Below are positions 120 to 58,079 of a DNA stretch of 64,000 nucleotides, piece by piece. Under the pieces are notes generated by a model that had not been told where the DNA came from, searched no databases, and worked only from the letters and a program-made list of their open reading frames with translations. This stretch comes from Balanoglossus misakiensis. Its lineage: Eukaryota; Animalia; Hemichordata. The DNA lies in the NCBI GenBank assembly GCA_040954595.2, contig CM082581.2:7122699-7186698 (forward strand). The letters run 5' to 3'. Positions within the stretch are counted from its first letter, which is position 1. Each line of letters starts with the position of its first letter. The position numbers and the translations under genes are program-made.

Positions 120-589
120 CTACGAAGTCGAGGAAATGTGGGGAAGGATGACGTCCGGAGCCCGCCACCTCTCGCTTTCAATGTTCACCAACCACTTCTC
201 GATTCTCGACTCGGGGGTCTCGGGTTCCCTCTGGTATTCCGGCGTTTCGTCGATGACGGTCTCTCTGATCGGGAGAACGATTCCCTCGTCGGTGTCGTTG
301 TCGTCGTCGTCAGCGGTTTGGCCCCATTCGTCTCCCCCGTCTTCCTCCGGGATGCCGGATTTCACGATGCAGTCGTTCTGAAGGCAGCCACCGCCGACTA
401 GACAGTTATCACTAGGCTGTCGCCTGGTGGTGATGTCACCGCTGGAGCTCTGCCGAATTTGCTCCACGAAATGTTCTGTGTCATCGGCCAAGTTCTCTTG
501 ACCTTTGCAAACTTCGTTGAGAGATTGCCTGATCTTTTCCAACACAAGAACATCGTGTCCGTTGGTGTGCATGTAGTTATTATTTGACA
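120..589 (-). CDS. Gene A coding exon 2: acidic C-terminal half ending in the RIEKWLVNI helix; spliced protein about 388 aa
   Basis: Strong acceptor ttttcctattttccttttcag| ending at 590. G from exon 1 plus TG gives GTG, in frame with ORF 120..590, so phases match exactly. TAG stop at 122-120. Confidence 0.8.
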
Positions 590-959
590 CTGAAAAGGAA
601 AATAGGAAAATATTTTAAACAAAGCAGTGCGCAAAAAAGGGACATTTTCATTGTTACATCTGCAGGGTCTCAACTTGGTCTTGAACGGAAAGGCGGCTTT
701 TCAACGAAAGGATTAACGGAATCACAATAGGCGTCAACTTCACGGTCACGGAGCAGACAACAATGTCAAGGAATCCAATTACAACTTATGCGGCCAATGT
801 TTGCAACATCCAAGGCGGTTTAGAAGGCCGCAGAATTAAAAATTTAAATTTTAAAACAGTTAGCAAAATCAGATATGTTAATTTTGTTCATTGCGTGGAC
901 CGTTAAGGTCCTCGACTTGCAAACTAGGTAAACCTAATCGAGGGAAAAATACAAGCTGT

Positions 960-982
960 GTTTGTTTGTTTGTTTGTTTGTT
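960..982. repeat. (GTTT)n microsatellite in the gene A intron
   Basis: Direct reading of the sequence. Confidence 0.9.
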
Positions 983-2431
983 AGAAACTAATTACAACAA
1001 AGGCCCCAACGCGACCGAATCATAGCCATGAAAGTCGTTGATCTATGACCACAGACAAAGAGAAATGTCGACCCCGGTGACACGAATGTGACGAAGTTGT
1101 CATGGTGACAGCGCCTGAAGATGACCACGATTGTTATTGCCTCGGGTTACAATACATGACTCGCGGTTTCATCATTTATGTAGAATAAAGATAGACGTCC
1201 ATATATTGTGTCAGGTGGAACAACCTTGTTAGAATATGGAAGGTGGAATGACCGTGTTTAGAAGTCAGACAGACAGTCAGTCAGTCATTGAATCAGTCAC
1301 GGAAGAAAGAAAGAAAAAAAAGAAAGAAAGAATAAAAACAAGCCAGCAAACCTTTTTGAAAGAAATTAACACAATAAACCAAACACTTATTTCAATAACA
1401 CCACCTCCACGGGTTTTCGTGTATTGACGTGGAAGGTGACCCTGGTCCCACCCATTGAGTGTCACGGCATCATGGGTGTATGACAACCCGCCATGGTCGA
1501 CAAGGATATACGGCTAACTATTATGACAAGAAGGACAATATTTGGTATTGTTCAGAAAACAGCGACAACAATCCATTAACCGTGGTCATTACGTGCGTTT
1601 CCACAAACGTCTGCCAGCTTTTCGGCCCCAATATCCCTCCCTAAGAAGTGAAAGTAGTGACCTATGCGCGTTTTAGCTTGAACAGTTTAAGCTACAGACA
1701 AAGATGAGTTTTTCTCATTGTGCTTGGCCTGGTCAATAAGTGGTATCGTGAATGAAATGGGAAAAGGGACCGAGAGAAGCACTTTTTATTGTGTTTTCAC
1801 TGCGTCTAATACCCCTAAGTCCTTTTATACAGTGAGCATTTGGAGACGATTGTATGGAAACGTTCACCTTTTTCCCCCAGGTGGCACTATTTAATGCAAA
1901 TCCACGCTTCTTTCAATGAGTCAAGTTCAAATCCAATCGCGGTCAGCCTTTTGTGTTTAAGTTGTTACGTAAGTAATTCGAAATCGCTAACTTTCAAAAG
2001 TCAACCACAATATATTTTTTCTCGGCAAAATCGTCCACAGCACCCGTTCATTTATTTTGCAAATTCGAAGCAATTGCGTTGGTCATTGGCCAAGTTAACA
2101 AAGACCAGAATTATTTCACCGATCGGTCAAAGAAAGACTGAAGTTGGAATATGAGTGAAAGTGGGAAAGTTCTGGACAATTTTGACAAGACCCGCAAAAT
2201 TGTCAACAATAATGGGTCCAGGAGCCACGGGCAAATTTCTCGCTTCTCCAGGGTTTCCGGAAAGGTCCGAAAATAATCTCTGCGATTCTTAATAAGAGAA
2301 CTCAATAGTTGCTTTCGGCATAATCGATATAGTGAGTTCAATACTAGAATTTATAGACTTGGAATTTGTCCTTGCAGATACTAATCTTTATGATATTTTG
2401 AAGTAGACCCATTAAAAATGTGGTAGTTTAC

Positions 2432-3128
2432 CTGAAGTTCTCGGGGCCGGGAGAGGAGTATCCGGTCGGGAACTTTGACGGCTGACGAGAGACCGCCGTG
2501 ATATCCTCGGGGACGGCACCGGAGAGTTAGTTAGGGATGACACGCCGTTGGTGTGCGACGATTTCCGACGGATCAGCGGCGAGGAGTTTGTCGAACTCGG
2601 CATCGCCTCTTGGGTGGAGAAAATGTTTCTCCTGTGTATCAGTGGCGAGCTGCCGGCGCTCTGTTGTCCCGGCGGCGGCGGATCGTCGGACCCCGTGCTC
2701 GTCGTTCGTCTCAACACCTTCCGCAGCAGGTCCGGGGAGCCGTCGCCTGATCGCGGCGACGCCATGTTGTCGCCCTGGTTCTGAATCCCCTTCGCCATAT
2801 GCCGCTCCAGGTGCCTTCGCATGTCCGGCATCGATGCGTGCTTTAGGAATTTTCCGCGGTGGCGCATGAACGACGACGGGCTCTGCGGGGGTGTGTCGGG
2901 CGCCGCGTCGGCCCTGAGCGGAAACGTAGTCTCTTTCTCTGTAGGCGAATCCCCGATCTCATGCCGCGATAACGGACTGTTCACCAGCGGTGGCAAGTTG
3001 TTCAGCGCCGGTGCACTGTCGATTTTCCGAAGAGCTCTCTTCCGTCTTTCCAGGAGTCTCGGCTTGACCCCGGGGCTTGTTGGCGGTGTCTGGTATCCGC
3101 CGAAGACATCGTTACCTCCATCGCTCAT
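2432..3128 (-). CDS. Gene A coding exon 1: Ser/Pro/Arg-rich disordered protein (232 codons + 1 nt)
   Basis: GC-rich ORF starting at ATG 3128. Donor TCAG|GTAAAC with the intron starting at 2431 (phase 1). Repeated SPxxxR[RK] units (SPDLLRK, SPLIHRR, SPLIRRK, SPRISRR). Confidence 0.8.
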
Positions 3129-6100
3129 ATTTGTCGGAAACGGTCGCGCTCGATACTCCGTTTATCGTATCAGACAGATTTCCAAAATCCGTCCGAATCA
3201 AAAAATGCCCGCAGCGCTTCGACTGCCAAATGTGCCGACGGTCGACAGTGCAGTGGGGTCCTTACCGCCTGAGATTTAGAGTCATTCGGATAAAACAGAC
3301 GATACAGTTCTCAGAGCGTGAACAATTGGGCAAACAACGCCAACAGGTAAACTACCGAAGTAAGTAAACCATTAGGCCGTACAGATAGAAAAGGGTCCTG
3401 GGCGCGGGACCGTGTCTGTCTGCTACTTTAACAAGTATGCGAGAGAACCTAACCCCTCTGTCTAGAACACAATAGAACCAGGTGGCATTGTTATGTAAAT
3501 GCGGTAACTTTGCCGGCGGCCGAAGGAGTGTACCTGCATGTAACCACTTGCTGACCATCAGTATCACATTTGCCGCTGTCAAAAGAGCGTCATTAAAATG
3601 CCATTTATTTTGTGGAAAGAACGTCGAGTGGTCCGCCAGCAAACACTACAGGCCGCTGTCTGCGTCACTCTGAACCCCTCGACTGCATGATTACACAGGT
3701 TTTTCTATTATAGGGGCAACAACCGATCGCGACTACAGCGATATTGTAAAGAAAAAAGTACAACAATGCTTTTCTCCCAGAGAAGTTGATCGCATTTTCG
3801 AAAAAAAACATTAATTAGATATTTGAATGGGTCAGAGGTCAATGGCCGGTACCTTTCCTACACGTCATCATTACCATACCATCGTCGGTTGCTCCAATGG
3901 CCATGGTCAACCTTTGACAGTTTGATATTTTTAGCAACTGACGAAATGCACAATTATATTAGCCATGGCTGATATTGAAGGGTACTCCTACTTATCAACC
4001 CAGTGCATACATGTACACTCGGTAATCGTCGGCATTTATCGGACGTCGAAATTGAAAGTTTTAAACTTTCCCCAGTATTTTGCTCAAGTATCTCTGTTTA
4101 AATGAAATGGTCAGCGTTCATTTTCTTTTAGTCAGCAAGTCATAGACCCCCATTTTTCATTTTGTACAGAAAATAGGAGATTCCGCGTGAATCACCACCT
4201 GTTGCGTCGTCGATGTAGTCGGTGCGTGCACCCCCCCCCCCTCCCACACGCGCGCTCGGGCAGTGAAACTTTCCAAACAGGACAGATTATTCCGTAATGC
4301 GCGACGAAAACCCATGGAAGGCTCTCGCAGTCTCCGGGATGGAATTTCATACGCGCATTGAAAATCGGCTTTCTTTGTGCGAGAATGGAGAAAATAACAG
4401 GAGCGCATTGTTATTACACCTGACAATACTCGCCAGCCGCGGAGGACATGTTTACAAACTCAGAATTTCAGACATTTGATCCTCTTCAGCTTTGGATCGA
4501 ATCTCCGGGTCAGGGGTCGCTTGAAGTATGATATGTAAACTTGATGCGCTCGGGGCGAGGCACAAAGACTAACAGGTTGTCTCCATCCAAACTTTCGAAC
4601 GCCGAACTCTCTCAACACTTCCACCCGCGGAGAGATAAAAGAGCAAACACACTTACTTTCTGGATTAGTTTAATGTAAAGTCTGGTAAGTTTGCGCATGT
4701 AATCAAGTGTAATTACATTACGGCGTAAACCGCGTTTTGCGTCATTCAAGTTCCGGCTCAGTAGAAGAAAAATAAACGTATTCATGACAATCGATTGTGC
4801 AGTGCAAGTGTTTGACTAGCATAAATTGTGCGGGAGCTCAATAAGCCTTCCTCCCCAAATATGCCAATTAAATTTCTGAAGTTCGTGTTGAAATTTTGCC
4901 AGTCTCGATGCGTGTCTGGGCATTCGCGAATCGACTCTGAAGGGGCTGCAAAATGGTGGCAAGGAAAACGGCTGTAATTGGTTCCAGTGCCGGGATTCGT
5001 TAAACAAGATAACATCCATATTAAACGTCCTTGTGTTATAGAGAGGCGCATAAACGATGTTGATTAAGTGGCTTTTGATTGCAGTCCATTTGGTTGGCTG
5101 GGGAGACAATGAGGTTTTATGGAGGACCTCGTTAATTTATTTTGATGGCCGGGAATAATTGGAGTGTACCAAAACATGTCCATGAAATGGCTGCCAAAGA
5201 CAGAGGAACCCTGGGCAGGAAATTTGGGGGAGGGAGGGAGAGTGTGTGAGGTCGCGGTAGACGCTGGAGATAGAGACGAGCTTAGATAGATAGATACATC
5301 GATGAAAGGCGAGTAAAATGCGTGCAATCAATCGCTGGATTCAGTACGGGGCTTAACGCAACCAGTGCAATTACCGCAATTTGCCCTCCTGTTATGCTTC
5401 CGAACCCCAGGGGAAGGAGTCTTTGTCCGGGACGGGATTTTCATTCAGCGGCATTGTGACTCCCGAAGGCGGTCGGGTCCCTGATACCCATTGTTCATTG
5501 TCTGTCGCGGAAAAATAAGGCAACTGTTGTTTTCTCCGCTGTTGTTGGGATATTCAGCCACTTAGGCAGCAATCATGGTTTCCGAAGCACGTTTGCACGA
5601 CCTCCCATGTCACAAGAAAGTGGAAATGAAGTTGCTGCTTGGCGAACGACATTTTGACTGATGATCGCCAGAAGTAAACTCATTCAGTTTATTTGTAAAC
5701 ATTTTATATCGAAGCAGATGAAGATTCGTCTGAGTCTGACAAATATCTCGAACGCCCACTTTACCATCAGCACTTAGAACTTGCAGTTGACCGTGAGAAA
5801 CCCAAGTATATAGAGGGCGCTGTGTATAACATCTCGATCGTGGCAACGACGAACTTTGAAAATGATGTTTATCTGCGGTTGACAGGCAAACTTTTCAAAG
5901 CGTGGATTAATATTAGGCACGGTCCCTGCCCTCAATGTTGTGAAAGACTTTCATGAACAAAGGCTGGGAAACACACTTCTTGAGCGGCCTTAATCTGAAT
6001 TAAGCCGTGAGAATTAATTACATGTAAAAAGGACCGAAGGTGACCGCACATTTGACAAAATTGGCATCCGAGTTGATTGTGATCAGAACATTCTCACTGA

Positions 6101-7771
6101 GTGGAGCAATGAACTTACAAAGAGAGTATTCGCCAGATTAACCCCAAAGACCCTGCAGATCGCATCGGGGCGGAAAGATTGTGATCACACAACCATAAAA
6201 AACACATCGCTCAAAAAAGGAGAAACTCTCCTGGAGAGGCAAACGTACTTTGTATTGTAGGGCGGTCACCAGGCACTGGTCATTGAACTTTACTGACCCA
6301 CCCGTTGTCGTACACACCCGACTTGTTGAACATGATCAAAACCCCACAAAGGCGTTCTCTTTTTTTTCATCTTCACCCCATTTAATTTATTAAAACACCT
6401 CAGACAAGTTGTTGAAGTACGCCCTCAACAGTTACATCGACTGTTACTTCTCGTTTGAGTACAACGCTTACGGTTACTCGAAAAAAAATTGAACCACAAA
6501 ACGTAGAGGGCGCGCGCGCGGACCCACACGTCGTTAAATTGGCCAAGTTGTATTTTAAATAGTCAATGTTTAGTATTGCGAAACACCGCGATAAGCAAGT
6601 TGGAATTCGAGTAATGGTCCTAATATCATTGAATGCTGGTTTCGATACGCATTTGTGAGTTAGCTGTATGGTTGCACCATCAATTTATTGATTCGATGCT
6701 GCCTGAATTCCCTGGCGAAGTCAGAAATTGGCCATGAAGAAGAATTCGCACAAAGGCAGGAATAGTTTTCATGGCCGGCGCAAAAATATGGGCAAGGACA
6801 TGAACGCGGGACACTTCTGACCGGATCGATTTTTACCCCAGAAAGCACGCCAAACAATACCCACCCGCACGTAACAAAGTAGCGGCATTCAAACCAACCA
6901 GGCCAATCCCATCGCCACTGCTAAAACCGAACTTTTATGTACGTGCCATCCCTATTAGTAATGGTAGACTGGTATGCCTTACCTGCTGTAAAAACCCAAT
7001 TGGGTCTTTTCAGACCCCGCGATATTGGATTGAATTGTACTAACCAGCGAAGAATGGTGTTTATCGATCGGTAGACATCTCGAGTAGAATTAGCTTGCCT
7101 TTACTGTTTCAAATCTATCTTTTCTTACGAAATGCTAATCGCCTCTCATGTCGACCGGTTTCAATATCAATTTACATATAACGTTCTCTCCAAATAACGT
7201 AGCGAAATAATACTACTGTGGTAAAAACGCACAGAGAAAGAAAATTTAGGTTGAAAAAATTCTGGATCGAGACGTTTCGTGCGTGGTGCATTGTTTGAAA
7301 AACTGCAATGCACGAATTTACATGGTCTGATAACTTGGATAAATCCAACAAAAACTAACAAAAAGGTGGGATTATATGGGATTGCACGAGTACTGTACCG
7401 GGGCTTAGCAAAGAGAGTGTGATGCTATGTGTAATTATCTCACTCAAAAGTCAGTTCATCAGCAGCGAAAATCCACGGTCAATAAACCAATGGCGATCAA
7501 ATTAGCCTGGAACAATACAGAACACTGCATTCTTTGGGCTATTTATGCAAATGAGCTGGAGCCAGTTTCGCCCCTTCTCGGGACATCGATCTCGAACGAC
7601 TGCAGAACCCATCTCTACGGATCAGAAATGGCTGCTGCCTCGCTCGCTGCTGTGTCGACGATATGACCCGGTGACCCCTCCCTGCCAGTACGGCACTGTC
7701 ATGGATAAAATCCATGTCTGAGTAAGCTGGAATGGTGTGAGCGTGCAGAAATCCTGGTGCGGTGGCATCGT

Positions 7772-9158
7772 ATGGTACAGCTGGAGGATAAAGGGACGCA
7801 AGCTCGTTCGGAAAAAATGGAGAAAACATTGGCCGGCAGTGCCCGGGCAGACGCAATGGACGCGGACAAATGCCAGGAACGAGAAACCGATCTCGAAGAT
7901 GGCGAAGACATTCTCTTGGACGCAGATGCCATTCTCGCTCTCTCCGATTCGGACGACCCAGACGAATTTCCGCTTTTGCAGACTATCACTGAAAGCGACG
8001 AGGAAGACGACGCGGGAAATCGTGTCAAGAAAAATTCGCTCACAAAAGGCGAGTCAGAAGACAGAGACCGCAAAGCCTCCGAAGTCTACGTGCCAGCGGA
8101 GACCGTTCCACGAGCGTCAGCGTTCACCGCCGTCTCCGGCAATACATTCCGTCCGGTCGTGCCCACGCTGATCGTCCTCGACGTCGAAAGTGGTGACCGC
8201 AGTGCAGGTAGTCTGTTAGCAAAGCCGACAGCCGAGGAAAAGTTTCAATCGGTCGTCGATGAATACAAGCAAACGAGAGAAAATGGCAACCGCGTTGGAC
8301 TCGACAAAAGAGGAGGTATTGGATACGCCCAACCATCTATGACTGGACACAAAGACAGTTTCCTAAGCCCGGGGATACTGAACGGCGACAGCTCATCGCT
8401 TGTAGTGAGAAGGCATTCCTTCGGGGGGACGGCCAAAGACCAAAAGTCAAAAGATGAGCTGCGAGAACATCGCCACATGACACCTGACAAACAACAAACA
8501 CGGGCGGTTCACAGGCGACCGCCTTTGATCACGATTCAAGGAACGCTTTCGTCGTCCGACAGCGAGTCAGAGAAGACACAATCCGAAGCTGGAATTGTGT
8601 TCAATCCGACGAAGAATGCGGTACACCGGACGGGTCTCTGGGGGGCCGGCGACGCCATGTTGGAACCGTTCAGTGGTAAAACAAAGAAAGTCACGCGAAG
8701 GTACTCGATCGCTCACACCCGGGAAGCGCACAAGAGAGTTCTTGAAAACATCAACTTTGAAAAGAGCCATTTTGTAAAAGAGAGAAACGGAGACCATCGA
8801 AGAGGCTCCAAGCCTCCCCTATCGCCCAGTTCCTTCACTCACACGTCGAACAGACAACGACGGAAAGCTTCCGTCGACGCCCCGAACATGAGACTCTTGC
8901 AACCGCACCCTGCATCCCCGGCAGATTCTCCGAGGTCAAAGAGCAAGCACGCCCCGCCAACCCAAGGCGGCTTGACGATTCCGCAACAGCTCGACACGGC
9001 AAGGCAGCGGAGGGCGTCGTCGATCATCCCGCCGCGGAGAGACACAGCCCTCCTCAGCCCAGCGGACCCGACCTCAGTCGGCGTCGATAAAACCAAAAGG
9101 AGAACAACGTCCTGTCCACCGCCAGTTACTTTATCGTCGTCGCATTTCATGTTTGGAG
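7772..9158 (+). CDS. FAM124: FAM124-family gene coding exon 1: about 462-aa disordered N-terminal extension
   Basis: Long ORF; first ATG at 7772 follows an in-frame TAA at 7706. Donor GGAG|GTGAGG at 9159 (phase 1) joins the FAM124 exon in frame. Confidence 0.75.
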
Positions 9159-10013
9159 GTGAGGCCAGTCTTGTATTCCGGAATCTTTGAAAATTTCCGG
9201 AAGCAACATCACGTATTCAACTTTAACAACCATTGCAAAACTTTATTTTCGACCAATTCTGCGTTTTTCAATATAGTTTCCCCCCCCCCCCCCCTCGTAC
9301 GAAATTATCTGCATTAGTGGTACTCGGGGAGTATGTACTAGTATGTCGTACGGTATGTGACATCGAGACCTTATATAGTTCGTTACGTAACAATTAACAG
9401 TTAAATTGTAATCACCGGCAGAAAATCGATATGAAAAACAGTGGGGCGCGATTCTTCGACCAGAAAATAGTATTCTGCAAACCGGCACGTAAAAACATGG
9501 TAGACCGAGTGTTTTTCGCGGGTGCTCAAAGCTTGTATAAGAATTTTAGTCCGCTGCCAGTGGAGGCCAATAATCGCCGCAGACTGCTATAGCCACGGTG
9601 TGTGGAGCTCGTGTGCCGGCCCAGTCGTGACCAGCACCGTCACCATGCACTATACAAGACCTCCAGGTTGGCGATCAATACGAAGCAGCAGGGTTCCTAC
9701 TACCCGACCGTTATTCGCGTTTTCATCTTTAGTGAGCGATTAAGTAAAATTGAAAGCATAGCGGAAACTTTCGTCAATTTTTCGTCAATTTTTAATTAGT
9801 CTTCGAGTTATCACGTTCTAATTTCTCTTTGACTTATTGTGTGCTTATTCTCGTATCCGGACTTCACACTGAGATCATGACGCAGTACAGGTCTACCGAG
9901 AAATATTCACGGCGACCTAGTGAGGCGTGTTTGCTGTCTACAGTACGACCAATTGAAATTTTGACGTAAGAAAACTGATCGCAAAATAATTTAAACTTTT
10001 TTTATATTTTCAG

Positions 10014-11020
10014 ATGACAATTGGGACGATGGGAAATCTTTCGATCACTACTTAATGACAATGCATTTGATGACCGACCCCGGCGAGGCTGACAAGGTCA
10101 AACAACTGCTGCAGCCCCTCATTGATCTCATAATACCGAAACTGAAGGTATTCAACATCGTCGAGCGAGACCTGCCGGAAAACGCCGAGGTCAGCACGCA
10201 GGGAACGACGCCCTCCACCGGCGTGGTCCTGTTCCTCCAGGAGGACTTCGGGTTGGACCGCATCCTCCAGGCGCAGAAGTACTTCTTCCAGTCGCCGTGG
10301 CAACTGCACCACCGGGACCGACTGGGGACCAATATAGTCTCCATCGCGTCGAACAATCAGGACTTCTACTTCTTCTCGCTCGGCATGCCGCTCTGGGGGA
10401 TACGGCAGGTGCACGGCGGCAGGGACATCCTGCGCTTCATGCTGTTCGTGTCGGACGGGAACTGGGAGGACACCATCCACCTGTACACCACCCTCCTGGG
10501 GAAGGACGTGCGCCTGAACAGGAACGGCTTCTGCTTCTTCACAGTGTTCCGCAGCAACGCGGTGCGGCTGGAGATCCAGCTGGCGCTGAAGCGACTGCCG
10601 CCGGGGCTGAGGCCCAGGGTCTCCGAGTCCTCCATGCTGCAGTTCAAGGTTGAGGAGATCGGCCAAATGGTGCCCTTGCTGCCGCACTCCTGCACCCCGA
10701 TCAGCGAGCGCCGGTGGCAGACCACGGACTACGACGGCAACCGGGTCCTGCTGCTGGTGGCGCCGATTCACGGCGCCGGAAACCAGGACAGCCTCAACGT
10801 AGCGAACGCGCCGACTAAGAAGCGCAGCCAACAACAAGCGGCGCCCCGCCGATCTTCCCTTGTATCCGTCAGTTCAGCTTACGAGTCTGCCGCCGAGTCG
10901 CTGCCGCAGTCGAAAACTTCAACACCGCCCTCATCATTGTCAAGTCACTCGTACCACTCGGCGTCCGAGAACTCAGGTGGCACTGATACATCGGACGACG
11001 AGAACGTGCTTTATATATAA
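10014..11020 (+). CDS. FAM124: FAM124-family gene coding exon 2: FAM124 domain plus Ser/acidic tail
   Basis: Acceptor ttttttatattttcag| ending at 10013; G+AT gives Asp, then 13 codons to ATG 10055. Recognisable FAM124A/B motifs: VVLFLQEDFGLDRI, SPWQLHH, NNQDFY, PLWGIRQVH, IQLALKRLP, LQFKVEEIGQMVPLLPHSCTPISERRWQTTDYDGNRVLL. Very high GC3. Confidence 0.93.
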
Positions 11021-17331: not shown

Positions 17332-18201
17332 CTATTCATACATCCAAGACTCGTCTTCCTCTTCGCGTTTCTTCTTCTCTGCCTCGTCTTCCTTGTTCAG
17401 CCATGTCCACACCATGTCCAGCTTGTCGTCTGTCATGAATGTCTTTTCCTGCCGAAGCGAGCTCGTCCTCCTCGCGCTGTCGCCGGCAGACTTGATCTGT
17501 CGGACGCGTTCCACCACCTTCATCTGCTCCTCGCTCTCCACCGGTTCGCTGTAAGGTTCGCACCTGCCGAAACTGTCCAACAGCTCCTTGACTTCGGGCT
17601 GGATTTGCAGGCAGCTTCTTCGCAGTCGCACGTTCTTGCCTCGCGTGCGCGTGCCCAATTTGGTCCCGCTTGCGGCGAGGGGAACGCTGGCGCGCCCGTT
17701 CGCCTGGCTGGCAAGCGCCGTCTTGTGTTGACCCTGGCTGAGTTCGGGGAGACTGGTGCTGCTGCTTGACTTGGTCGGTTTCTTGGCCGTCGCTTTCGCC
17801 TTCTTTTTGCCAGCGTGGGTTTTCTTAAACAGAGCCGATAAGTCAGAATTGTAAATGTTCTGTATGGACACCTTGCCCTCGTTCGACGGCAGCGTGTACG
17901 TGATCCCCCGGCTTATGGTTGCCCGTCCAATGGCCCCCCTCAGGCCGTCCAGTGGAGGCAGTGGCTCCGGTGGCTTTTCGTCCTCATCTTCCTCCACCAC
18001 TCTCTCGAGGAAGCAAAACGTGTCCTTCTTGTATCCCGTCGGGATTTTGAGCTTCTTCTGCTTCGGTCGTTCCTTCGACAGGTCGGACGGGTCGAAGAGC
18101 GATAGCTTCGGCGCGTACTGCATCGGCCACAAGAGAGACGAATTGGTGGTTTCCACTCTCGGCTGGCTGGGCACACCACTACTGTACACGTCGGCTGACA
18201 T
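17332..18201 (-). CDS. Gene C: 289-aa basic/disordered protein with C-terminal FMTDDKLDMVWTWL helix
   Basis: GC-rich single-exon ORF; first ATG at 18201 (the track starts at upstream TTG 18213). Shares the C-terminal motif with its neighbours. X-box about 250 bp upstream. Confidence 0.82.
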   Translation of the reverse strand: MSADVYSSGVPSQPRVETTNSSLLWPMQYAPKLSLFDPSDLSKERPKQKKLKIPTGYKKDTFCFLERVVEEDEDEKPPEPLPPLDGLRGAIGRATISRGITYTLPSNEGKVSIQNIYNSDLSALFKKTHAGKKKAKATAKKPTKSSSSTSLPELSQGQHKTALASQANGRASVPLAASGTKLGTRTRGKNVRLRRSCLQIQPEVKELLDSFGRCEPYSEPVESEEQMKVVERVRQIKSAGDSARRTSSLRQEKTFMTDDKLDMVWTWLNKEDEAEKKKREEEDESWMYE

Positions 18202-18446: not shown

Positions 18447-18460
18447 GGTGTCATGGCAAC
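18447..18460. promoter_or_regulatory. RFX X-box upstream of gene C
   Basis: GGTGTCATGGCAAC resembles the GTNRCC-AT-RGYAAC consensus and lies about 250 bp 5' of the ATG. Confidence 0.5.
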
Positions 18461-27495: not shown

Positions 27496-28665
27496 TTACG
27501 TTTCAGACTTTGGTGCCAATTGGATATTGGCGAGCCATTCTTGGCATCGTTTCATTGTGGAGTTCTCCTCGCCATCGCTGTCTGTTTTGGGCGCCAGCGG
27601 GGGTTGAATGGCTTCCCCCTCAGCCTCCAGGTCGATGACATCAACATGCTTCCCCACCGGGTTGGGTGCTGCGTCCTTGGGGCACAGGCACGGCGGCGAA
27701 CCGACCAGATCTCCCGCGGTTAATTTTGCAGTAATGAGCGTAGTCGGGTGATGACGGTTGTAGCTGCTGCTGCTGCCGGCGTCGGGATGGTGTTGTTGGT
27801 TGTCGGTGTGATGACGATACAGGTGGTGGCTGTGACGTTGATCGTGGTCGTGGTCGTGGTGACAGCTGGATCCCGCCGGTGTCTTTTCCCAGCTCGGATG
27901 TTCGTCAGCGATCGTCTCGAAGGCCTTCACATTCTCGACCGTCAGCTCGCTGATGGCCGGTCCGTGAGAGCGTGACGCGTTGTACGAGTCAACAACGCGG
28001 CGACTGGAGCCCGGACTTTGGCAAGGGGAATTTCGCGGGCTTGACGTTAGACTCCGCGGTATGGAATGCACGCTTCCGACGCCCAGTGTTAATGCATGTT
28101 CGAGATCTATCCTCGACAGGGCATTGTCCGGTCGAACTCTCCGCTGTGTCGCCGGCGAGGCCCGGCCTAGAGAGCTATTTTCAACGTTCGAGAAAAGCAT
28201 TTCCAGGGTAACGTTCGACTCCTGCCCCGACGTTCCCGGGCTGAGCAAACGCGGGCTCACACTCGCCCAACTCTCGTCCGAGGTGTCGCCGTCTCGGAGC
28301 ATGTGCTGCTGTTGTATGAGGCCATTCCGTTTCCGAAGCACCTTCCGTCGGAGGGACGGCGAAACAAACGAAGACAGCGGGTCTCCCTCGTTGTTGTGGT
28401 GATCGGACCTCGGTGCCTTTTCCCGCGAGGGAAACGCCGTACCCTCGCCGCTTTCCTCGGGTGCGTGATCGCCCTTCTGTCTGGTGGGGATGTGGAGCGG
28501 GGGTAACTCGAGCACGTGCCCGTCGTGTTTTGTCGGAGTCGCGATTCTCCGTTGTACGAAGGGCGAGTTCGGCAGGCTTCTCGCCCCCTCACTGTGAAAC
28601 CGTCTCCGGTTAACGTTAGAACCCTTTCCGTCACGCATCGTCAGGGATGGTGACAAGTCCACCAT
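27496..28665 (-). CDS. Gene D: 389-aa Ser/Pro/His-rich disordered protein ending KRCQEWLANI
   Basis: GCC-ATG-G Kozak start, with an in-frame TGA 3 nt upstream fixing the start. Acceptor tttttttatgtgtgTAGCAG| about 50 nt upstream. GC-rich ORF. Confidence 0.88.
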   Translation of the reverse strand: MVDLSPSLTMRDGKGSNVNRRRFHSEGARSLPNSPFVQRRIATPTKHDGHVLELPPLHIPTRQKGDHAPEESGEGTAFPSREKAPRSDHHNNEGDPLSSFVSPSLRRKVLRKRNGLIQQQHMLRDGDTSDESWASVSPRLLSPGTSGQESNVTLEMLFSNVENSSLGRASPATQRRVRPDNALSRIDLEHALTLGVGSVHSIPRSLTSSPRNSPCQSPGSSRRVVDSYNASRSHGPAISELTVENVKAFETIADEHPSWEKTPAGSSCHHDHDHDQRHSHHLYRHHTDNQQHHPDAGSSSSYNRHHPTTLITAKLTAGDLVGSPPCLCPKDAAPNPVGKHVDVIDLEAEGEAIQPPLAPKTDSDGEENSTMKRCQEWLANIQLAPKSET

Positions 28666-33450: not shown

Positions 33451-34509
33451 TCAGAAAAGAATATCCTTTACTGTTGTCCTTGTGTCACTGGATGTATCAA
33501 TGTCCATGTTTTCTATTCCCTGAAACTGATCGACGCTCTCCAACCATTCGCTGACTTTGCATTTTGATTCGAGCATTTTCTTGTCGGAGTTCCTGTGGCG
33601 GCCATTTTCTGGTGCCTCGTCATGATCAGGGAGGCGGTTGACGTCAGTATTGTTGTCCCCTGACGGCATTTCTGTGTCAAAGGTAACACCGCCGCCCGGT
33701 CTGTCCCTGTTCGGACTGGCGGTAGTCGAGTTTGACGACCTGGCGTGTAGCCTCCATATCGTCCTTTGCTTCGAATTCGCACCGCTGTCCTGTTTGGAAG
33801 ACGGTTGAAGAAGGCCTGTGGAATTGTCCTGAGATGTGTGTGAGTCAAGTCTATTGCTGAGCGGGTCCACGAAGTAGGACTGTTCTTTGGCGTCTGCGAT
33901 GCCGTTCGGCGTCGTGTCCAGCAGGACCCTGCCCGACGCCACGCGCGCCGTTATGAGCTCCACGTCCTGGGGGACTTCAGTCGCTCGGTAGAAGAACCCC
34001 TCGTCGTGAGCCCGCTTGCAGAAATCACTGGCGCGCGCGGCGGCTTCTTCGAATTCCCGCCTCGCCCGCTGCTTGAGATAGTCGGACGCCCCGTCTGACG
34101 TGTGGGGCCTCTGCAGAGTCGGGAACGAGCTTTTCCTGCTGAAGGGCCTGTTTCCAAGAAGTTGATTCTTCTGACTCAAGATCTCCGGAGCGGAAGGCGA
34201 CCGGTAGGGTCTCCGAAATAGTCTGCTTTTGGCACTGGGTTCCATCAGCACGGGCAGCCCCTCCGAATTCAGTTTGATGGCGCCCACCGACTGGGGTCGC
34301 TCTTTCACCGGCTGGGCGGTTTCACCACTGGGCAGCGTGAAGGCCACGCTTTTGGCGTGAGCGCTTTTGGGCGCCACTCTGTGCTTCAACGGCGATGCGG
34401 GGTTCCATTCCTTGTCGGCCCGCGCCCCGAATCTCACCATGCCTGGCCTCACGATGTGCTGCATATCCGCTACTGTGTGCGGGCGAGGTGGAAGATGACT
34501 CATCTTCAT
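33451..34509 (-). CDS. Gene E: 352-aa disordered protein with RPx[ST] repeats and KVSEWLESV helix
   Basis: Long GC-rich ORF. Acceptor ttttttatctcttccag| 18 nt before the ATG (exon starts 34527). The frame is open back to the acceptor, so a short upstream coding part cannot be excluded. Confidence 0.86.
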   Translation of the reverse strand: MKMSHLPPRPHTVADMQHIVRPGMVRFGARADKEWNPASPLKHRVAPKSAHAKSVAFTLPSGETAQPVKERPQSVGAIKLNSEGLPVLMEPSAKSRLFRRPYRSPSAPEILSQKNQLLGNRPFSRKSSFPTLQRPHTSDGASDYLKQRARREFEEAAARASDFCKRAHDEGFFYRATEVPQDVELITARVASGRVLLDTTPNGIADAKEQSYFVDPLSNRLDSHTSQDNSTGLLQPSSKQDSGANSKQRTIWRLHARSSNSTTASPNRDRPGGGVTFDTEMPSGDNNTDVNRLPDHDEAPENGRHRNSDKKMLESKCKVSEWLESVDQFQGIENMDIDTSSDTRTTVKDILF

Positions 34510-35214
34510 TATTCCATCACCAGTGTTCTGGAAGAGATAAAAAACGTGCCGTTTTTAAGTAAAAGTGATCCAAACTTTCCTTGTTGCATACGGACACTAT
34601 GTGAGCGTCCAAAACATTTCAAACATTATTTTTTACCGTTTCTGTTATCCAGTAAGTTATAGTGATAGTAATCAAGTTCGAAAAAATACTGCCTTCAAAT
34701 CATTACTTTTCTGTACCAGAAGCCTAACTGCTAAAAATAACAGAATCACAGGAAAAAGACCCTGGTACCAATTTCCTTGTAAGGGGAATGTAGTCGTATT
34801 TGTTCTGCTATGAGTGCCAATCAGTTTCGTGTACCGTTCGCTATAGCGTGCTAAAATGGTCGATACTCAGCGTGTAAACATGAAGTATGCGTAAGTGCGT
34901 ACTTTAATTAAGTTTCAACAGTATCAGATGCTAACTGTATACATAATACCAAATACTAGCTATGGGACCATAGTGAAACAACTTCCAGTGTGTCCGCTTG
35001 GTGAAAAGTTTCACATTTTGATATGGTCTGGAGGGAAACATACAAGAAGGCTGTAATTCTTGTATTACGCGACAAAGAATGACAACATTGTACATGTTTT
35101 TCACTTCTGACACCGTGTCTGGTCCCGCCTGTGTACGTATACAACACGCCTAGAGACGGTTTCACCCATTTCGTGTGTCACTCACTCGAGGTTTGTTATG
35201 ATTTTGCTTACTGC

Positions 35215-35228
35215 GTAACTATGGCGAC
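35215..35228. promoter_or_regulatory. RFX X-box upstream of gene E
   Basis: GTAACTATGGCGAC next to minus-strand donor-like sites (GTAAGC about 35211, GTGAGT about 35185), about 0.7 kb 5' of the coding exon. Confidence 0.4.
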
Positions 35229-46826: not shown

Positions 46827-47645
46827 CTACGCGGCATCAGCGTCTGCAGTGGTTAAATTTTCTGCGCCGTTTTCCGCTATGAGCGGCAAGTGGTCTGAGG
46901 TGTCCCCCGAGGGTTCGTCGCCCGTGTCAGAGCGAGCCTTTTCGCACGCCTCCAGCCACTGCATGATAGTCCTGCTCTTGGTCGGCTCGAGGAAGCCGAC
47001 CGCGTCACAGTGGTCCTCGTCGCCCTCCGCTGGTGGCTCTAGCGTGGGCTGAAAGGAGAGCTTGCGCTCGTGCAGCAAGTTCTGTCGGCTGGAGGTGCAC
47101 TCGTCTTCGTCGTACCTGATGATGACGGTCAGCTCACGCTGCACAGGTTGCCGTACATACACTTCCTCGATCGTTGACACGCTCGCTTTCTTCTTGGGCG
47201 CCATCTTGGGGAGAGACGATGCGTTCGAGCTGGAGGATTCCCGCCTCCGCTTGTCGACGCCTGTCTCCCTGTGTTGGGTCGTCAGCGCTGTTCTCGCCGT
47301 CAGCTGGGAGTCCCCCCTGTCGCCGTGAATTCTCGTCTCTAGCCCCAGGGTGGTTTTATTCCTGCAGAGACCGGGCATCTTTTCCTCGGCCGCGGCCTTA
47401 TCTCCCGGCTGCGATGTCTCCAGCCGCGCCGTCAACTTCTTCCTGGGCAACTGTCGCCTGGGAGGTTGCACGGCGCTGTTCGAGCTGCTGCTACTCGACC
47501 AGCCGTTCGACGACTTGTTCTTGCTGTACAGCGACACGGACTCGGTAACCCCGCCGCGAGTCAGCCGCGGGCGGCCGTTGTTGACGACGGGGATCGGCGG
47601 GAAGGTCGACAACACCTGTCGCCTCAGCAATTCGTCCTTGCACAT
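46827..47645 (-). CDS. Gene F: 272-aa disordered protein with FLEPTKSRTIMQWLEAC helix
   Basis: GC-rich ORF. Acceptor tgctcgtttgctcttcag| 27 nt upstream of the ATG (exon starts 47672). Shared C-terminal motif. Confidence 0.84.
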   Translation of the reverse strand: MCKDELLRRQVLSTFPPIPVVNNGRPRLTRGGVTESVSLYSKNKSSNGWSSSSSSNSAVQPPRRQLPRKKLTARLETSQPGDKAAAEEKMPGLCRNKTTLGLETRIHGDRGDSQLTARTALTTQHRETGVDKRRRESSSSNASSLPKMAPKKKASVSTIEEVYVRQPVQRELTVIIRYDEDECTSSRQNLLHERKLSFQPTLEPPAEGDEDHCDAVGFLEPTKSRTIMQWLEACEKARSDTGDEPSGDTSDHLPLIAENGAENLTTADADAA

Positions 47646-50600
47646 ACTGTCTGTACGCGTGTAATTGCCAAGCTGAAGAGCAAACGAGCAATACAGACAA
47701 TCAATTAAGGTGATACCATTTGCGAAAACAACACTTTATCACCTAAGCTCCCACTGCCACCGTTTTGTGTAACATCCACAGCGTCTGCCAAGTCCTTATT
47801 AAACTTAGCAACCACTTGTTTAGAGGGAAAAAGTCGACGTCCCCATTTTGTATATGTCTGGACCGAATTTTATTGTAACGCGCATACAATAGCTTCGGTA
47901 TTGTATTTCTGACATTTGAGTCTCGCACAAGAGACGGCGTTTGTTCGCAATCAAATCAAAATGAACTAAGGCTTCTGGATTCCACTTGGTGAAAAAAAAT
48001 CGAAATTTCTCGACTCACCTTTTTGAGAAATATCTCTAATTTGAACAGGAAAGTGTTCCTTTATAGCCAGTGGACGGATCGGGCATCGGCGGTGGTGACT
48101 CTTCTGGACGGATGCTCGTGTGTTCCCGTTCTCCGCAGAGTGAGTTGCCGTTCTTATACCGCCGACCGACTCGGTGTGATTGCACACGGGACTACAGAGA
48201 ATTTGACAAGGGTGGCTGCTCACAAATGCCCAGCGGCTGGGCTGCCGATTGTTGCGTTGTTGACAAGAAGAATGGCTGTGACGTAAATGGAGATATCATC
48301 CAGCCAATAACACGCCACTCGTCTCCTTGCAAAAAAAAGAAGTGTCGACGCATGCGCTCGCCGACGCATCGAGTCATTCAACCTCGACGGCCGCCAGCCT
48401 GACAACGTCGATTGCATGGGTTTCTAACCGAACTTCTTGTATGGCCGGCTTTTCATATTTACAGCCCGTAAACAACTTATATGTGAGCGATAGAGTTTCA
48501 TTTTCTCTCCATAATATTATTAAATATACGTGCTTCGCACGACAGCCTAACACGGATTCAATAAAACGGACGTGTTTATCGCATATTCGATATCGAGGGC
48601 TATTCATAGTTTAATTTTGAGTATTAGATATTTTTCACTCAGACAAAATGCAGCTGTTTTGAAGCACTTTTCTTTCTGTTTTATAACTTCATTACCGGTT
48701 AGTCACATATTCTATGGCGAGACTCTCGAGGAGATCAAAAGTACACTGACTTCCAAGCATCGCGCCGCTAATGTAATACTGAAGGTCGGGGGGGGGGGGG
48801 GGTCGTCTGTGTTTCAGTAATGTGGTAGTTTCTTCAATTCCCTCCACGCGAAGTCATTCACCGTGCAGTGTTTTGTGTCTGAGTGCAACGACAAACACAC
48901 CAAACAGAACATTTTAGGTACTTAATAAAAGCCATTACATCTATGAAACGCTGTAAAGGAACCCCTTTGAATTGACAAACAAGTCTATCTACATTTTTTG
49001 TGCGCGTCCATAAAATCTCAATAGGACACACCTGGTAACTCGGATCGGACTTTGTCGTCAAGAGGGCGGTGTCTGTTCGCGCGATTGATCCGTCGAACGG
49101 CGGCGGCGTGTCATCGCCGGTCGAAGTGCGCACATCCCTAGCTTTCAATTGAAAATGCAGCCGTGACTACTCACATGGCTCGCGGAGGGCAAACATTACT
49201 CGCCCAAGGGGCAACCTGATACACTTGTTCGCCACGATTCTCCTATTGAGACATATATTCATGGCTTGTCCCCTGCCCCAAAGAGTTAAATTATATTTCC
49301 CTCAGAAAGTTTACAATGCCCATTTACATCAAGTTGAATCAAGTTCGCGCGGCGAGTGCTCGGTTTGCCGAGAACCACACAGGAGCCAAGCGTCAATAAT
49401 TTTGCCCGAATAAATCAAATTCGGGGGATCCAGAAAGTAGCTGAATCATTTCCTTTGACGCACGCGAGATAAGAAATTCATAGCATTTCATAGCCTCGGG
49501 GTTCTATCCCGAACGTGCTTTTCTTCATCCGGGGTTTTAACGAACCGCACGCGGTCGAAAAAGTAAAACGTCACTATTCTTTTAAGTTACATTGACTATA
49601 GTACGTCACAGAAACTGGAGTAAAGGTAGTGATGAGTACGTCTTTTACCCCTGTTAGTATTAAGCTATAATTTTTAAAAACATGTTTTATACATTAAAGG
49701 TTGATTCGAAATCTTTATTCCTTTCACTCATCATTCAGAGTGTCCTTTTGAGTTACTTTCTCAAATAAAACCGAATAATTTGCCTTAAAGTTTAATCCAG
49801 TTTACAGCACTCAACGATTCCCGAAACTTCAGAATATTTGAAATGGCAACACGTGGGGGGATTTATGAGTAAAACTAACACAACGGAGTTGTTCACTCAA
49901 GGTTTTGACGTTGCCGTCATATAGAGCCAATATCCGATCCCCCCAAAACCCGAGGCAGCCGGGAGGCGTACGTGTCACCCGTGCCGTTCTGAGGGGGGGA
50001 CCGCGATCAAAGTGTCTCGTCGACGTCGTATCGCATGACTGCCGACCTATTCACGCGACTGATACCTGAAGGGAGGAATCCATTAGCTCCGAGTCGCAAT
50101 ACTTAAAGTACTTACGAGCGTGCGGAGATAATGCGACGCAAGAGCGCATTGTATCATGACTCGCCCTTCTTGATGATGACTTCAATTGATCAAATTGAAT
50201 CATGAAACGGGGGTCAAATCACTCTTGTAAGCAAAAACGCAATTACGTGAACTCCATTTAAGCAGATCGTTTATGGTCCACAGAACAGGTGGAAGGAAAT
50301 GTAATGTTTAGAAAAAAAGAAATGTCCCCGTGGAATGGGTTGCAATAAATGTTTACCCAACCACCCATCGTCCTCTGAGAATCATGATGCAATATCGAGA
50401 TCTCGTGTATTCGATTTTTTAAATTGAAAAACCCAGTCCGGGTATTGCAACTCGACCCATGATATTGCCACTCCGAAAATCTGCACGGCACTTTAAAAAT
50501 AAAAGCAATTTTATTTTAAGTGTGCAATATGAAATCCTAGGAAAGACACTGATTTGACCTTGCCAACACATCTTGGCTGAACGAAAGTCTTTTACAGTAT

Positions 50601-53972: not shown

Positions 53973-56626
53973 TCATATTTCTGTACCACCATTGTGTAGC
54001 TACCGATATGTAATCTTACTCATTGACGCTGTGTCTAGTGGACATTCGTCACAAACCAAAGTCGCTTGTATCAAAATTAGCTTGTCGTGTTCAAATCCCA
54101 AGATACCTTAATATCGCTACACAAATATTTTTCATCTCTAACACAACCGTGTAATATTACAACCTAACACCCAGTGCGTGATCACAATACTGGGATTTTT
54201 GCATTATCGACTAATACTGTAAGTTGTGCTAAGTGGAAGTTTTTATTTCATTCCCCTGTAATCCATGTCGCTGTTATTTCTATACGCGTTGACAAACAGC
54301 TTTATCGAACCAAGTCCATTAGACGCTCCGTGTTTTCAGGCAAATGCTGTAACCTGATAACGCCAGCGCGCGTAGGGAGAATCGTGTTTTCTCTCGGACT
54401 TGAATAAAAGTTACAGCGTTGTGTACCGAATTACACAATAGTCGAATATCATATTAAAGGACTTAGGAAAATTCCGTGTGTAGTGCAGACGGCGTAATGA
54501 CTTCGTGGTGGCGGTAAACAAGTGTATCATAATTCAGTACGTCGAATGTTTACAGTTGCACTTCTGACGTACTTGTAAATATACCGTGCTGTAAGGTTCT
54601 GCAGTCTTTTATAGTGCACAGAAAGAATTTTCATGCCACCTATGGGGGCGCTGCTCACCTTACCTTATCTATAGTAAGTGTACAGTCTACCTTCGACAAC
54701 TTTTGTGACAATTTCAATAAATGACGATAGTACAATAGAGTTTTCTCGAAATTGTACGAATAAGGGTATATGGGATTTAATAACCATGCACTGCCTCTGT
54801 TTAGTCCCCTACCTTATATCGTCAACTTTTCAAACTTGGTTATCTCGTCAATCACGTATTTTCGCTTGTGGTTGGCCGCGCTAAAAAGTGCGCCACCGCA
54901 TGGTCATAAAAAAAATTTGCGCAGGTCCTTTTAGTTTGCACCTTATATGTGGCATATGTAAATTAGAAGTGATGTATACTATCATAAACGAGAACATGTC
55001 AACGAATGCGCAGAACTAGAACAATCTAAGGTGCATTGAATTCTACATTCCAAATATAGTTCAATTCATAAAATATGAATCTGTTGATTGGAATAAACAG
55101 ACGCTATGTTGCATGTAAAAAGACCATAAATTTATCGTATTGTCCACTGTCTCAATAGGAACATGATGAAACTGGCCGGCGATTTAAATGCAGCTTTTAA
55201 ATCTTTCATATTCTGCACTGGCGCCTTTTGAGAAATCACCCTTTATTTCAATTTCTTCGAAATGCGCTCAACCGAAAAAAGAGACGCATTAATTTTTTTG
55301 CATCATTCAGAAGTCAATCAACGAAAGGGAATGCCAATCATTTCTCGCGATGTGGCACTTATAATAATGGCTGCCGTGAATTGGAATTGTCCAAAAATAC
55401 CTGACGGAAGTTGGCGGTTTAAATTGCGCATCCTTCCCTCTAGCGCGAAGTTGCGCAGGCGTGTCTATAGAATACAATCAAAGGTCATTGGGGGGGATCT
55501 GGACGTGGAGATAAAATGTGGAAGAGTGAGGCTACGAAAAGTGGAAAGAAACAGAAACAGGGCAAACGCTGAGTCTATTCGGCGATATGCGCGGGATATC
55601 ACTTTCACGTTTGCGTCTCTCTTTCAATTTGCTCTCGCAATTGTCTCCACGATGTATGAATACAGAGCACAGGAAACCAAACGCAGCGTATCTTCCATGC
55701 AAATTAAAAGACCATTCGATATCGGAGCTTTGTGTCGATTTTATGAGCTGGCACAAATGAGCTCACACTGAAAAGGGGTCGAATTATGTATATTTTACAA
55801 CGTAACGCACACTAAATGAATAAAAAATGAGGGTGCGGTTTACTATGCCACCACTTTTACTGGAATTTAAGGAAAGCAGAATTGCGACATGTAAATAGTC
55901 GTCTCTATATTTTAGTGGATGTTTATCTAATTTTAAAGGAGGGGGGGGGGGGTAATTTCGCATGATGATTGAAAGCCTCCCCTTGAAAGCATGTTCTCCC
56001 AAAATGATACCACCGAGTATATCATTCCAATAGGCCATTGTTAATTAACAGCATATAAAAAGAGAAGGTCGGGTCGCATTCTTACTATATTGCAGTTTCT
56101 TGTTTTTTATACGATGTCGAGAAAACACTCGTGACCCGAGATGCCTTTCAGCGAAATGCGATCGTGTTAACCCTGGGTCGCGTCTTTCAGGACATCGTCA
56201 TGGCGTCGAGGTGTACACACACCGTACCGTGACCAAGGCAACCGTGAAGGGGATTTCGCATACGTAATTAACTGCCATTTTAACGTATCGATCTCTCGGC
56301 GTTGGCATTGTTTAACTTCATTAAACACCGAAATAGCACTTCAACGAGTGTGGTGTTTTGACATCGGCGAAAACGCGAGAACAGCCTCCACCTGTCACGA
56401 GGGATTAAGATAAGGACGTGAGGAATTATTTCTCGCGGTGAAGGTATGCGAACAGCCGATGCCGTGGACACGCAACCGACCAACAAAAGAGCACTAAATT
56501 TAACGCCTGTATTGCCCGAAGCGAGCCGTTCTGCGCATGGCAACAACAAACTCGCACGGTTGTATACAATAGCAAGATAAAAGACGGCAGAACAGGTGTA
56601 TTTTTCACGCGTATGTCGCGTCAGAG

Positions 56627-56817
56627 GTGAGTATACGCCGTAATTGTGAAATGCAGGGGGTTACTGCACGAGCAGAAAACACTGGGGGCTCGGTTATGTG
56701 TCCATGATAACACTTGTGCGGGTCGTATAGGCACAAGGGGATACCTGTATTGAGTTCTGTGCAGTCGATTTGTAAGTCAATCGATTAAGGCTCTCTGTGT
56801 GTCCCTTTGTATTACAG
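56627..56817 (+). other. 5' UTR intron of gene G
   Basis: Donor GAG|GTGAGT at 56627 and acceptor ctctctgtgtgtccctttgtattacag| ending at 56817. Confidence 0.65.
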
Positions 56818-57170
56818 ACAATCGTAACACTTGCAACCCCGGTCTGTCACCGTGAACACGTACTATACACCAGGCATCGTATCACAGACTGCCCTGGCAA
56901 CCGCATCGGTCTTTTATTCGGGGGAATCACGGCATGGCCAACCGGCGCGGGGAGATCACGTCCCTGCAACTCATCTAGACGGCGACCGGGCCAAACCGCC
57001 CGTAGGCAAGTATGCCGATAGACCGTGAAGCGAATCGCGGGTTCACAACAGTGCGGGTTCGGCCGAATCCTCATCTACCGTCCAGTCGGCCTGTGCAGAC
57101 CTCCTCTTCTGTCTACTACCTGTCCCCTTCTTCGCTGCTGATCGGCGGCACCAATCTCCCCACCGCCACC

Positions 57171-58079
57171 ATGTCGAACTTCTGGACCCGGGAGATACAC
57201 TCGGACAACGAGAAGCTGCCGACCATCGACGAGAATCCGTCCTTCAGCATTCGCGGCCACCGCGCCAAGAGTTTGCCGGTGATGCACACCCAGCACGGAG
57301 CGATAGTCAGGCACGGCAAGACGCCCAGGCATTCGTGGACCGAGGGCACCTTCACCACGCACGTGAAGCCGGTGGACAGCGACAGACTGAACGGCTTGAG
57401 CGGCAAAAGGACAGAGCTGCGACCCTCCACCTCCTGGGACAAAAATGGCCGCCGACGCGTGCACTTTACCCCGGCGCCCAAGAGCGAGGAGGTGTCGAAG
57501 GGAATCCAGCGGTACAACGCAGCTCACAATCCGTCGGCGGCTCAGAAGAACACCACGGTGACCGACGAACTCTGCGCGGACGACAGCGACGACAACAACA
57601 ACAACGGGAGGACGCCGATCATCAAGGTGACCGTGAGCCACCGGAATTCCAAGTCGGCGGGCGACGCCGGCAAAACGGACCTTGAATCGGCCGCCAGGGT
57701 GAACGCGGCCACCGAAGGTTGGTGCCAGAGATATTTGGGTCAGCAGAGGTTCCGCAAGCCTCCGCCGCCAACAACTGCAACGCCAAACAAACCAGTCAAT
57801 AAATCGCCTACTACGCAAACACAAAACAAGGAGGCTCAAATCAAACCAAACACACAACAAACGAGTGAAAACCAAACCAAAGTCGCCGTAAACCAAACGC
57901 CGACAACAATAGAAGTGCTGGACAGCCACCCGCAATGGAAGATGCCAACGTCGCACATCAATTTCTGCGATCACAAGAAGACGGAGAGAATAATGCGGTG
58001 GTTGGACGAGGTGAACGAACAGACGAAAGTGTCCGACAAGCTCAGCGGCCTGTGGACGTCGGCAGACGAGGAGAGATGA
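57171..58079 (+). CDS. Gene G: 302-aa disordered protein (355 aa if started at ATG 57012) with FCDHKKTERIMRWLDEV helix
   Basis: Strong Kozak context CCGCCACCATG at 57171. High GC3. Shared C-terminal motif. 5' UTR intron upstream. Confidence 0.87.
   Translation: MSNFWTREIHSDNEKLPTIDENPSFSIRGHRAKSLPVMHTQHGAIVRHGKTPRHSWTEGTFTTHVKPVDSDRLNGLSGKRTELRPSTSWDKNGRRRVHFTPAPKSEEVSKGIQRYNAAHNPSAAQKNTTVTDELCADDSDDNNNNGRTPIIKVTVSHRNSKSAGDAGKTDLESAARVNAATEGWCQRYLGQQRFRKPPPPTTATPNKPVNKSPTTQTQNKEAQIKPNTQQTSENQTKVAVNQTPTTIEVLDSHPQWKMPTSHINFCDHKKTERIMRWLDEVNEQTKVSDKLSGLWTSADEER

Follow-up and report, generated by a model that had tools for sequence, protein, structure and literature searches.

Six neighboring genes in Balanoglossus misakiensis encode largely dissimilar proteins with a shared C-terminal WL motif

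A 64,000-nt stretch of the genome of the acorn worm Balanoglossus misakiensis (assembly GCA_040954595.2, contig CM082581.2, positions 7,122,699–7,186,698), referred to here as the window, holds seven predicted genes. Six of them, named A, C, D, E, F, and G, encode proteins of 272–389 aa that all carry the motif [IVC]xxWL in their last 45 aa; the seventh is a FAM124 gene. The shared motif exceeds chance in shuffling tests and its core is identical in all orthologs found. The six genes are probably an old tandem family of signaling adaptors with predicted disorder over most of their length.

Gene models

The window was scanned in six frames. Nine long GC-rich open reading frames (ORFs) lie amid otherwise non-coding DNA and resolve into seven genes (Table 1). 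GC content at third codon positions (GC3) is 0.67–0.79 in all seven, compared with a GC content of 0.43 in the non-coding DNA. In 7/7 genes the leave-one-out codon score is above zero for the sense strand and below zero for the antisense strand. Five of the six motif genes have a single coding exon, and gene A has two: ORFs 2415–3161 and 123–614, spliced from a donor at 2431 to an acceptor at 589, yield 388 aa, and both pieces are matched in tblastn by one 401-aa protein of Ptychodera flava (P0002).

Splice-acceptor-like sites precede the start codon by 18–52 nt in E, F, D, and G, at 34527, 47672, 28717, and 56979, with that of gene E lying 18 nt upstream of its ATG. These sites suggest 5′ untranslated exons. 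Isoform X1 of the P. flava ortholog of E has extra sequence joined near the same point as the gene E site; its alternative first exon was not found within the window.

A codon-bias scan of the remaining window detected no further strong coding segment. The strongest leftover is a minus-strand segment of 37 codons at 49029–49139 (19.5 bits), which may be a small exon or a chance match.

The C-terminal motif

The first-pass annotation had placed [IVC]xxWL near the stop codon of every non-FAM124 gene, and each of the six ORFs carries it there. The word "every" holds because ORF 7709–9187, which might have counted as another gene, is predicted to splice into the FAM124 gene (see below) and because the codon-bias scan added no strong segment. 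The motif is followed by 22, 21, 11, 29, 41, and 24 residues in A, C, D, E, F, and G, so that the range of about 10–45 aa first proposed narrows to 11–41. With positions counted from the Trp, C, F, and G have Phe at −12 and Lys at −7 in common and align without gaps, as had been noted. A residue I, V, or C three positions after the Leu, also noted before, is present in five of six genes, the exception being C with Glu. No additional motif-bearing ORF was found in the window; the next-best profile match (E 0.16) is a 15-aa ORF.

By itself the five-letter pattern is frequent: a six-frame translation of 127,996 codons contains it 26 times, and 20 of these matches fall outside the six genes. A shuffled protein has it among its last 50 aa with a probability of 0.0025–0.005. 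As a post hoc correction, shuffles were counted whose six tails all have any hydrophobic-x-x-XY pattern in common; this occurred in 0/20,000 whole-protein shuffles and 0/20,000 tail-only shuffles. Some gapped residue pair was common to all six tails in 2,455/20,000 shuffles, and a Trp-containing pair in 8/20,000 tail-only shuffles. Of 160 control tails, taken from non-kinase ORFs of fetched viral and contaminant loci, 2 have the pattern.

A profile built from five genes picks the motif as the best site of the left-out gene in 6/6 trials. The number of shuffles that score as well, out of 500, is 1 for A, 24 for C (the weakest), 2 for D, 6 for E, and 0 each for F and G. When the three site-picking columns are removed, the flanks still agree above shuffles (28/5,000). 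This agreement is driven by the pairs F–G (P = 0.0016) and A–D (P = 0.019); taken singly, 12 of the 15 pairs do not reach significance at 0.05. The flanks fall into the subgroups F/G/C, A/D, and E. The motif is shared beyond chance at an equivalent position, as in a tandem family. Full-text literature searches, with subscription papers mostly outside their reach, returned no description of the motif.

Orthologs and conservation

Orthologs were sought in two mixed-profile searches, each limited to about 7,990 candidates. These gave P. flava orthologs of A (P0002) and F (P0003) and orthologs of E in P. flava and Glandiceps talaboti; gene G has a single match, in P. flava (P0001). A full HMMER search of 1,835,955,588 representatives with a profile anchored on E gave three matches and added Saccoglossus kowalevskii at 37% identity. 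Relatives of gene E beyond P. flava (P0004/P0007), Glandiceps (P0005), and Saccoglossus (P0006) were absent from these 1.84 billion representatives. The absence of other phyla applies to gene E alone because an E-anchored profile cannot detect relatives that share only the motif. The named relatives are all acorn worms, with P. flava closest, and public annotation lists them as "uncharacterized protein", as the first-pass annotation had expected. Ptychodera, Glandiceps, and Saccoglossus belong to three different enteropneust families, which diverged several hundred million years ago.

Residues −3, 0, +1, and +4 of the motif are the same as those of the window in 6/6 orthologs (20/20 positions across five orthologs and 4/4 in Saccoglossus), which agrees with the predicted conservation of the WL core. 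Ortholog pairs are 49–80% identical over their length, and the 12-residue segment around the motif ranks only at the 46th–91st percentile of conservation within its own protein. Across four species, 69 of the first 200 columns of gene E are invariant; its motif block has 6 invariant columns in 25, versus 8 in 115 in the preceding linker. On these figures the proteins are not the "motif-only" adaptors first proposed.

The P. flava ortholog of E has five RefSeq isoform accessions, which would usually reflect transcript support. The P. flava orthologs of A, E, F, and G are each recorded with a contig of 39,134,633 bases, with accessions XP_070540674, 680, 695–699, and 702 that fall within 30 numbers. 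Conserved linkage of the four genes in P. flava is suggested by these records. That the genes are real and under selection is supported at the level of sequence.

Protein bodies

Outside the motif, the proteins cannot be aligned between the six genes, yet each aligns well with its own orthologs; the earlier description of the bodies as unalignable stands for the first comparison and fails for the second. Trp was described as otherwise rare, and this does not hold for G; counts are 2–7 per protein. Labels for RVxF, B56, and kinase-site motifs in the six proteins follow what we take to be their usual definitions. Gene G keeps RRVHF and LPTIxE in its ortholog. The conserved blocks of gene E comprise an RVxF-type site, RPxS/T sites, and a 30-residue helix. 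Neither Pfam nor the PDB gave a match for this helix and its adjacent block.

Table 1. Predicted genes, motifs, and other features of the window (positions 1–64,000)
Feature	Position	Strand	Remarks
Gene A, coding exon 1	2432..3128	−	Ser/Pro/Arg-rich, predicted disordered; donor/acceptor join gives open 388-aa frame
Gene A, coding exon 2	120..589	−	Holds tail motif
Motif A, RIEKWLVNI	180–206	−	11/12 residues identical in P0002
Gene C, 289 aa	17332..18201	−	Single coding ORF; GC3 0.75
Motif C, MVWTWLNKE	17389–17415	−	
Gene D, 389 aa	27496..28665	−	Weak likeness to A
Motif D, RCQEWLANI	27523–27549	−	
Gene E, 352 aa	33451..34509	−	Orthologs P0004/P0007, P0005, P0006
Motif E, KVSEWLESV	33532–33558	−	
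RVxF-type (PP1-docking pattern) KSVAF, gene E	34339..34353	−	Pattern kept in 4/4 species
Conserved 30-residue helix, private to gene E	34003..34092	−	AlphaFold helix 138–167, pLDDT ~87 over 141–160; kept in four species
Gene F, 272 aa	46827..47645	−	Ortholog P0003, 68% identical
Motif F, TIMQWLEAC	46944–46970	−	F(−12), K(−7) ahead
Gene G, 355 aa	57012..58079	+	Ortholog P0001, 79% identical
Motif G, RIMRWLDEV	57987–58013	+	F(−12), K(−7) ahead; 12/12 residues identical in P0001
RVxF-type RRVHF, gene G	57453–57467	+	
FAM124, disordered 5′ coding exon	7772..9158	+	Long; no WL motif; predicted splice to 10014 keeps frame open
FAM124, domain exon	10014..11020	+	PF15067, E 7.9e-80
X-box-like palindrome	18447..18460	.	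Predicted site, 246 bp upstream of C start codon
X-box-like palindrome	35215..35228	.	Predicted site, 706 bp upstream of E start codon

Predicted structure and database comparisons

The AlphaFold model of gene E has a predicted local distance difference test (pLDDT) score below 50 in 264 of 350 residues (mean, 47) and a few helices, one of which covers the motif at a pLDDT of about 60. A 35-residue peptide around the G motif is modeled as a helix; isolated peptides often fold as a helix in such models. The hydrophobic moment of the motif ranks at the 83rd–100th percentile within each protein, and the fixed positions lie on one helix face, which in gene E extends to M(−10) and C(−5). The motif is thus predicted to be an amphipathic helix, and the first-pass proposal is borne out as a prediction.

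No Pfam family above cut-off was found for the six genes, their orthologs, or motif fragments. When the PDB was searched by sequence with profiles of the E family and of the motif, the one significant match was a designed repeat protein, whose score sums eight copies. Foldseek with the low-confidence E model returned no match at E ≤ 0.001, and Atlas returned no usable match for the G tail. For the E ortholog, Atlas gave 0.77 for TEX33/CIMIP4 with 138/256 features, a lead only, below the 0.9 level. Membership in TEX33/CIMIP4 was rejected on that score and for lack of a PF15400 match in Pfam.

Helix 1 of SAM domains (ANKS1B 2kiv and liprin-beta 3tad) shares the letters VxxWLxx[IV] with the motif, at E values of about 1–2 that are not significant. 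SAM-domain proteins differ in having a five-helix domain of about 65 residues, whereas the helix here stands alone within disordered sequence near the C-terminus. A degenerate SAM domain was rejected; there is no Pfam SAM match, and the few residues after the motif (11–41) leave little of such a domain.

The FAM124 gene

FAM124 lies among the six genes and is the sole gene of the window with a Pfam match above cut-off; its domain exon scores 268.3 bits to PF15067 against a gathering score of 23.5 and belongs to that family. Upstream, in the 493-aa ORF 7709–9187, a GTGAG donor at 9159 is predicted to splice to the acceptor at 10014, which gives an open 818-aa FAM124 frame. This ORF was considered as a seventh, motif-less gene and rejected, since it is predicted to splice in frame into the FAM124 exon. 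The joined protein would have 13 basophilic kinase-type sites, and its 5′ exon has an LxxIxE-like motif. No ortholog of the 5′ exon was found in the two mixed-profile searches, which at their size give no evidence of absence. Neither FAM124 ORF contains the pattern [IVC]xxWL.

In its second half (10370–10760, plus strand), the FAM124 domain has, by eye, the look of a glyoxalase/VOC-type fold. A PDB sequence search returned no glyoxalase/VOC-type match for it. FAM124 neighbors in other animals were looked for in two metagenome scans, in which no relative turned up, and in search listings the literature on FAM124 shows nothing about a flanking gene cluster. FAM124B is described as a partner of CHD7 and CHD8 (PMC3528654), and nothing links it to the neighboring genes. 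FAM124 was set aside as a partner of the WL helix, adjacency being the sole basis for it.

Interpretation

The six genes are best read as an old tandem family of disordered signaling adaptors, and it is fairly probable that the tail helix of each docks on one folded partner. They are taken as diverged duplicates that kept one docking handle because a two-turn hydrophobic face is conserved in an otherwise disordered tail, as is typical of helices that fold upon binding. The family would have arisen by tandem duplication, after which the bodies diverged past recognition. Residues −3, 0, +1, and +4 would stay fixed because they form the binding face, and the helix would hold one common folded partner protein. 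Each paralog would keep its own short motifs, among them PP1 sites of the RVxF type (E and G), B56 sites resembling LxxIxE (C, E, F, and G), and basophilic kinase sites. In this way each gene may link the common partner to a phosphatase, kinase input, or location of its own. The one candidate put forward for this partner is a kinase, for example CK1.

Several results weigh against this family reading. No duplicated DNA was seen between the genes. The best motif-free body pair, A–D, reaches a z of 3.0 (3/300 shuffles) as the best of 21 tests, and no pair is convincing. In a comparison of A with D, 5/1,000 shuffles are as good, and this weakens to 58/1,000 once the P. flava ortholog replaces A. 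F and G compared over their full length are at background (407/1,000). C and D have no ortholog in the searches of about 7,990 candidates each, which is not evidence of absence. Short-motif enrichment is marginal, with 51 (RVxF), 93 (B56), 59 (PKA), and 36 (RPxS/T) of 1,000 shuffles as good. The WL face is generic because the same letters match SAM helix 1, and the pattern also fits the designed repeat protein. Finally, the 160 control tails are not from animal disordered proteins. The proposal of an old tandem family is therefore favored over convergence yet not settled, because the bodies lack convincing mutual similarity.

Convergence, in which unrelated genes of a co-regulated and possibly RFX-driven ciliary neighborhood each gained a generic [IV]xxWL helix independently, is rather unlikely. 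It would account for the unalignable bodies, for a pattern that is short and generic, and for the split of the flanks into three subgroups. The same motif at the same end of 6/6 adjacent genes of similar length and exon layout is hard to reach independently, however, and the flank columns agree above shuffles. RFX controls ciliary genes, and X-box-like sites are in excess, with 7 against 0.33 expected and 19 against 3.1 ± 2.0 by a shuffle baseline within the window; the Atlas lead to TEX33/CIMIP4, below the 0.9 level, is a further point for this reading. Against it, an X-box lies no more than 2.5 kb 5′ of the ATG in only 2/7 genes. Neither RFX nor FoxJ is mentioned in PMC11618098.

The seven X-box-like palindromes, which have at most two mismatches to the consensus, are at 10291, 13769, 16869, 18447, 25680, 41703, and 58634. 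Many of these palindromes lie far from any start codon, some of them past gene G or in the space between 3′ ends that converge.

A broader version of the adaptor reading takes the WL tail helix as an undescribed, animal-wide docking motif, possibly a CK1-type kinase anchor, and the block as the acorn-worm form of an ancient RFX-driven ciliary adaptor cluster that hands one kinase to many phosphatase-binding scaffolds. We consider it unlikely.

A special case of the tandem adaptor family, in which the helix is a casein kinase 1 (CK1) anchor as in PERIOD/LIN-42 and the cluster encodes CK1 targeting subunits, is decidedly unlikely. The hydrophobic spacing of the motif is, we assume, like that of the PER CK1BD-A helix and the last FAM110 helix. 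PER, LIN-42, and FRQ bind CK1 via short helical motifs (10.1101/2022.06.24.497549, PMC12624140, PMC12105198), and FAM110A, which has a predicted helix at V268–E289, binds CK1 (PMC11260166). The same sources also count against a CK1 anchor, since CK1 binding of FAM110B maps to F-X-X-X-F (PMC11260166), which 0/6 proteins contain, and in LIN-42 motif B, not A, carries most of the binding (PMC12624140). SxxS spacing is not enriched in the six proteins (74 versus 69.5), and Pfam gave no FAM110 or PERIOD match.

Among loci L001–L093 and L096–L119, many giant-virus contigs encode intact CK1-like kinases, and the fetched loci gave 61 distinct ORFs of >260 aa; the giant-virus CK1-like kinase of L006 scores 316 bits to human CK1 delta. 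Contigs L094 and L095, from prokaryote genome bins, carry eukaryote-type, interrupted casein kinase 1 genes, and contamination of those bins is therefore indicated. No intact intron-free animal CK1 was found among the fetched loci.

Self-assembly, in which the helix forms homo- or hetero-oligomers with no outside partner, is highly improbable. One conserved hydrophobic face within a long predicted helix would suit it, as would the extension of that face in E, but only about two turns are covered by the conserved face, and the alignment has no heptad repeat. A chance pattern picked after the fact is barely credible and largely refuted. In its favor are the other matches in the six-frame translation, the common gapped pairs, and the weak result for C; against it are the shuffles of the matched pattern class, the rarity of a shared Trp-containing pair, and a core identical in every ortholog found.

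Related systems

FAM110A–D (PMC11260166) are mostly disordered proteins of about 300 aa with a few separate conserved helices, one of them at the very C-terminus, and serve as kinase-regulated adaptors. FAM110 differs in its Pfam domains, which were not matched by window ORFs (E ≤ 1), orthologs (E ≤ 10), or motif fragments in searches whose filters drop weak matches. FxxxF is also missing, with 0/7 ortholog records and 0/6 proteins containing it, and the six genes have no common N-terminal block. PERIOD, LIN-42, and FRQ likewise anchor a kinase through short helical motifs in disordered regions. PERIOD and LIN-42 differ in that two helices surround a serine cluster in a PAS protein, whereas the proteins here have one helix near the C-terminus, no PAS match, and no SxxS enrichment.

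PP1-interacting proteins resemble the six in that a disordered chain carries one short conserved stretch. In motif-defined disordered families of the FAM222 type (PMC12690120), identity also rests on a short segment that binds a kinase or phosphatase. No sequence match to these families was found, and the locus here has six highly diverged members in one 58-kb block. The dark tandem gene families of corals (PMC13044578) are lineage-restricted, unannotated, and conserved; they belong to a different phylum and are likened by description only.

Families of disordered adaptors that are recognized by a single short motif are already known; a compact six-member block that is so diverged, and its unnamed motif, are new. 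The locus would represent a gene family invisible to similarity searches, in which six neighbors share one nine-residue face and little else. Six naturally diverged versions, together with their orthologs, define which residues matter. If the motif recurs in unnamed proteins of corals, echinoderms, or vertebrates, the catalog of docking motifs would gain a new entry.

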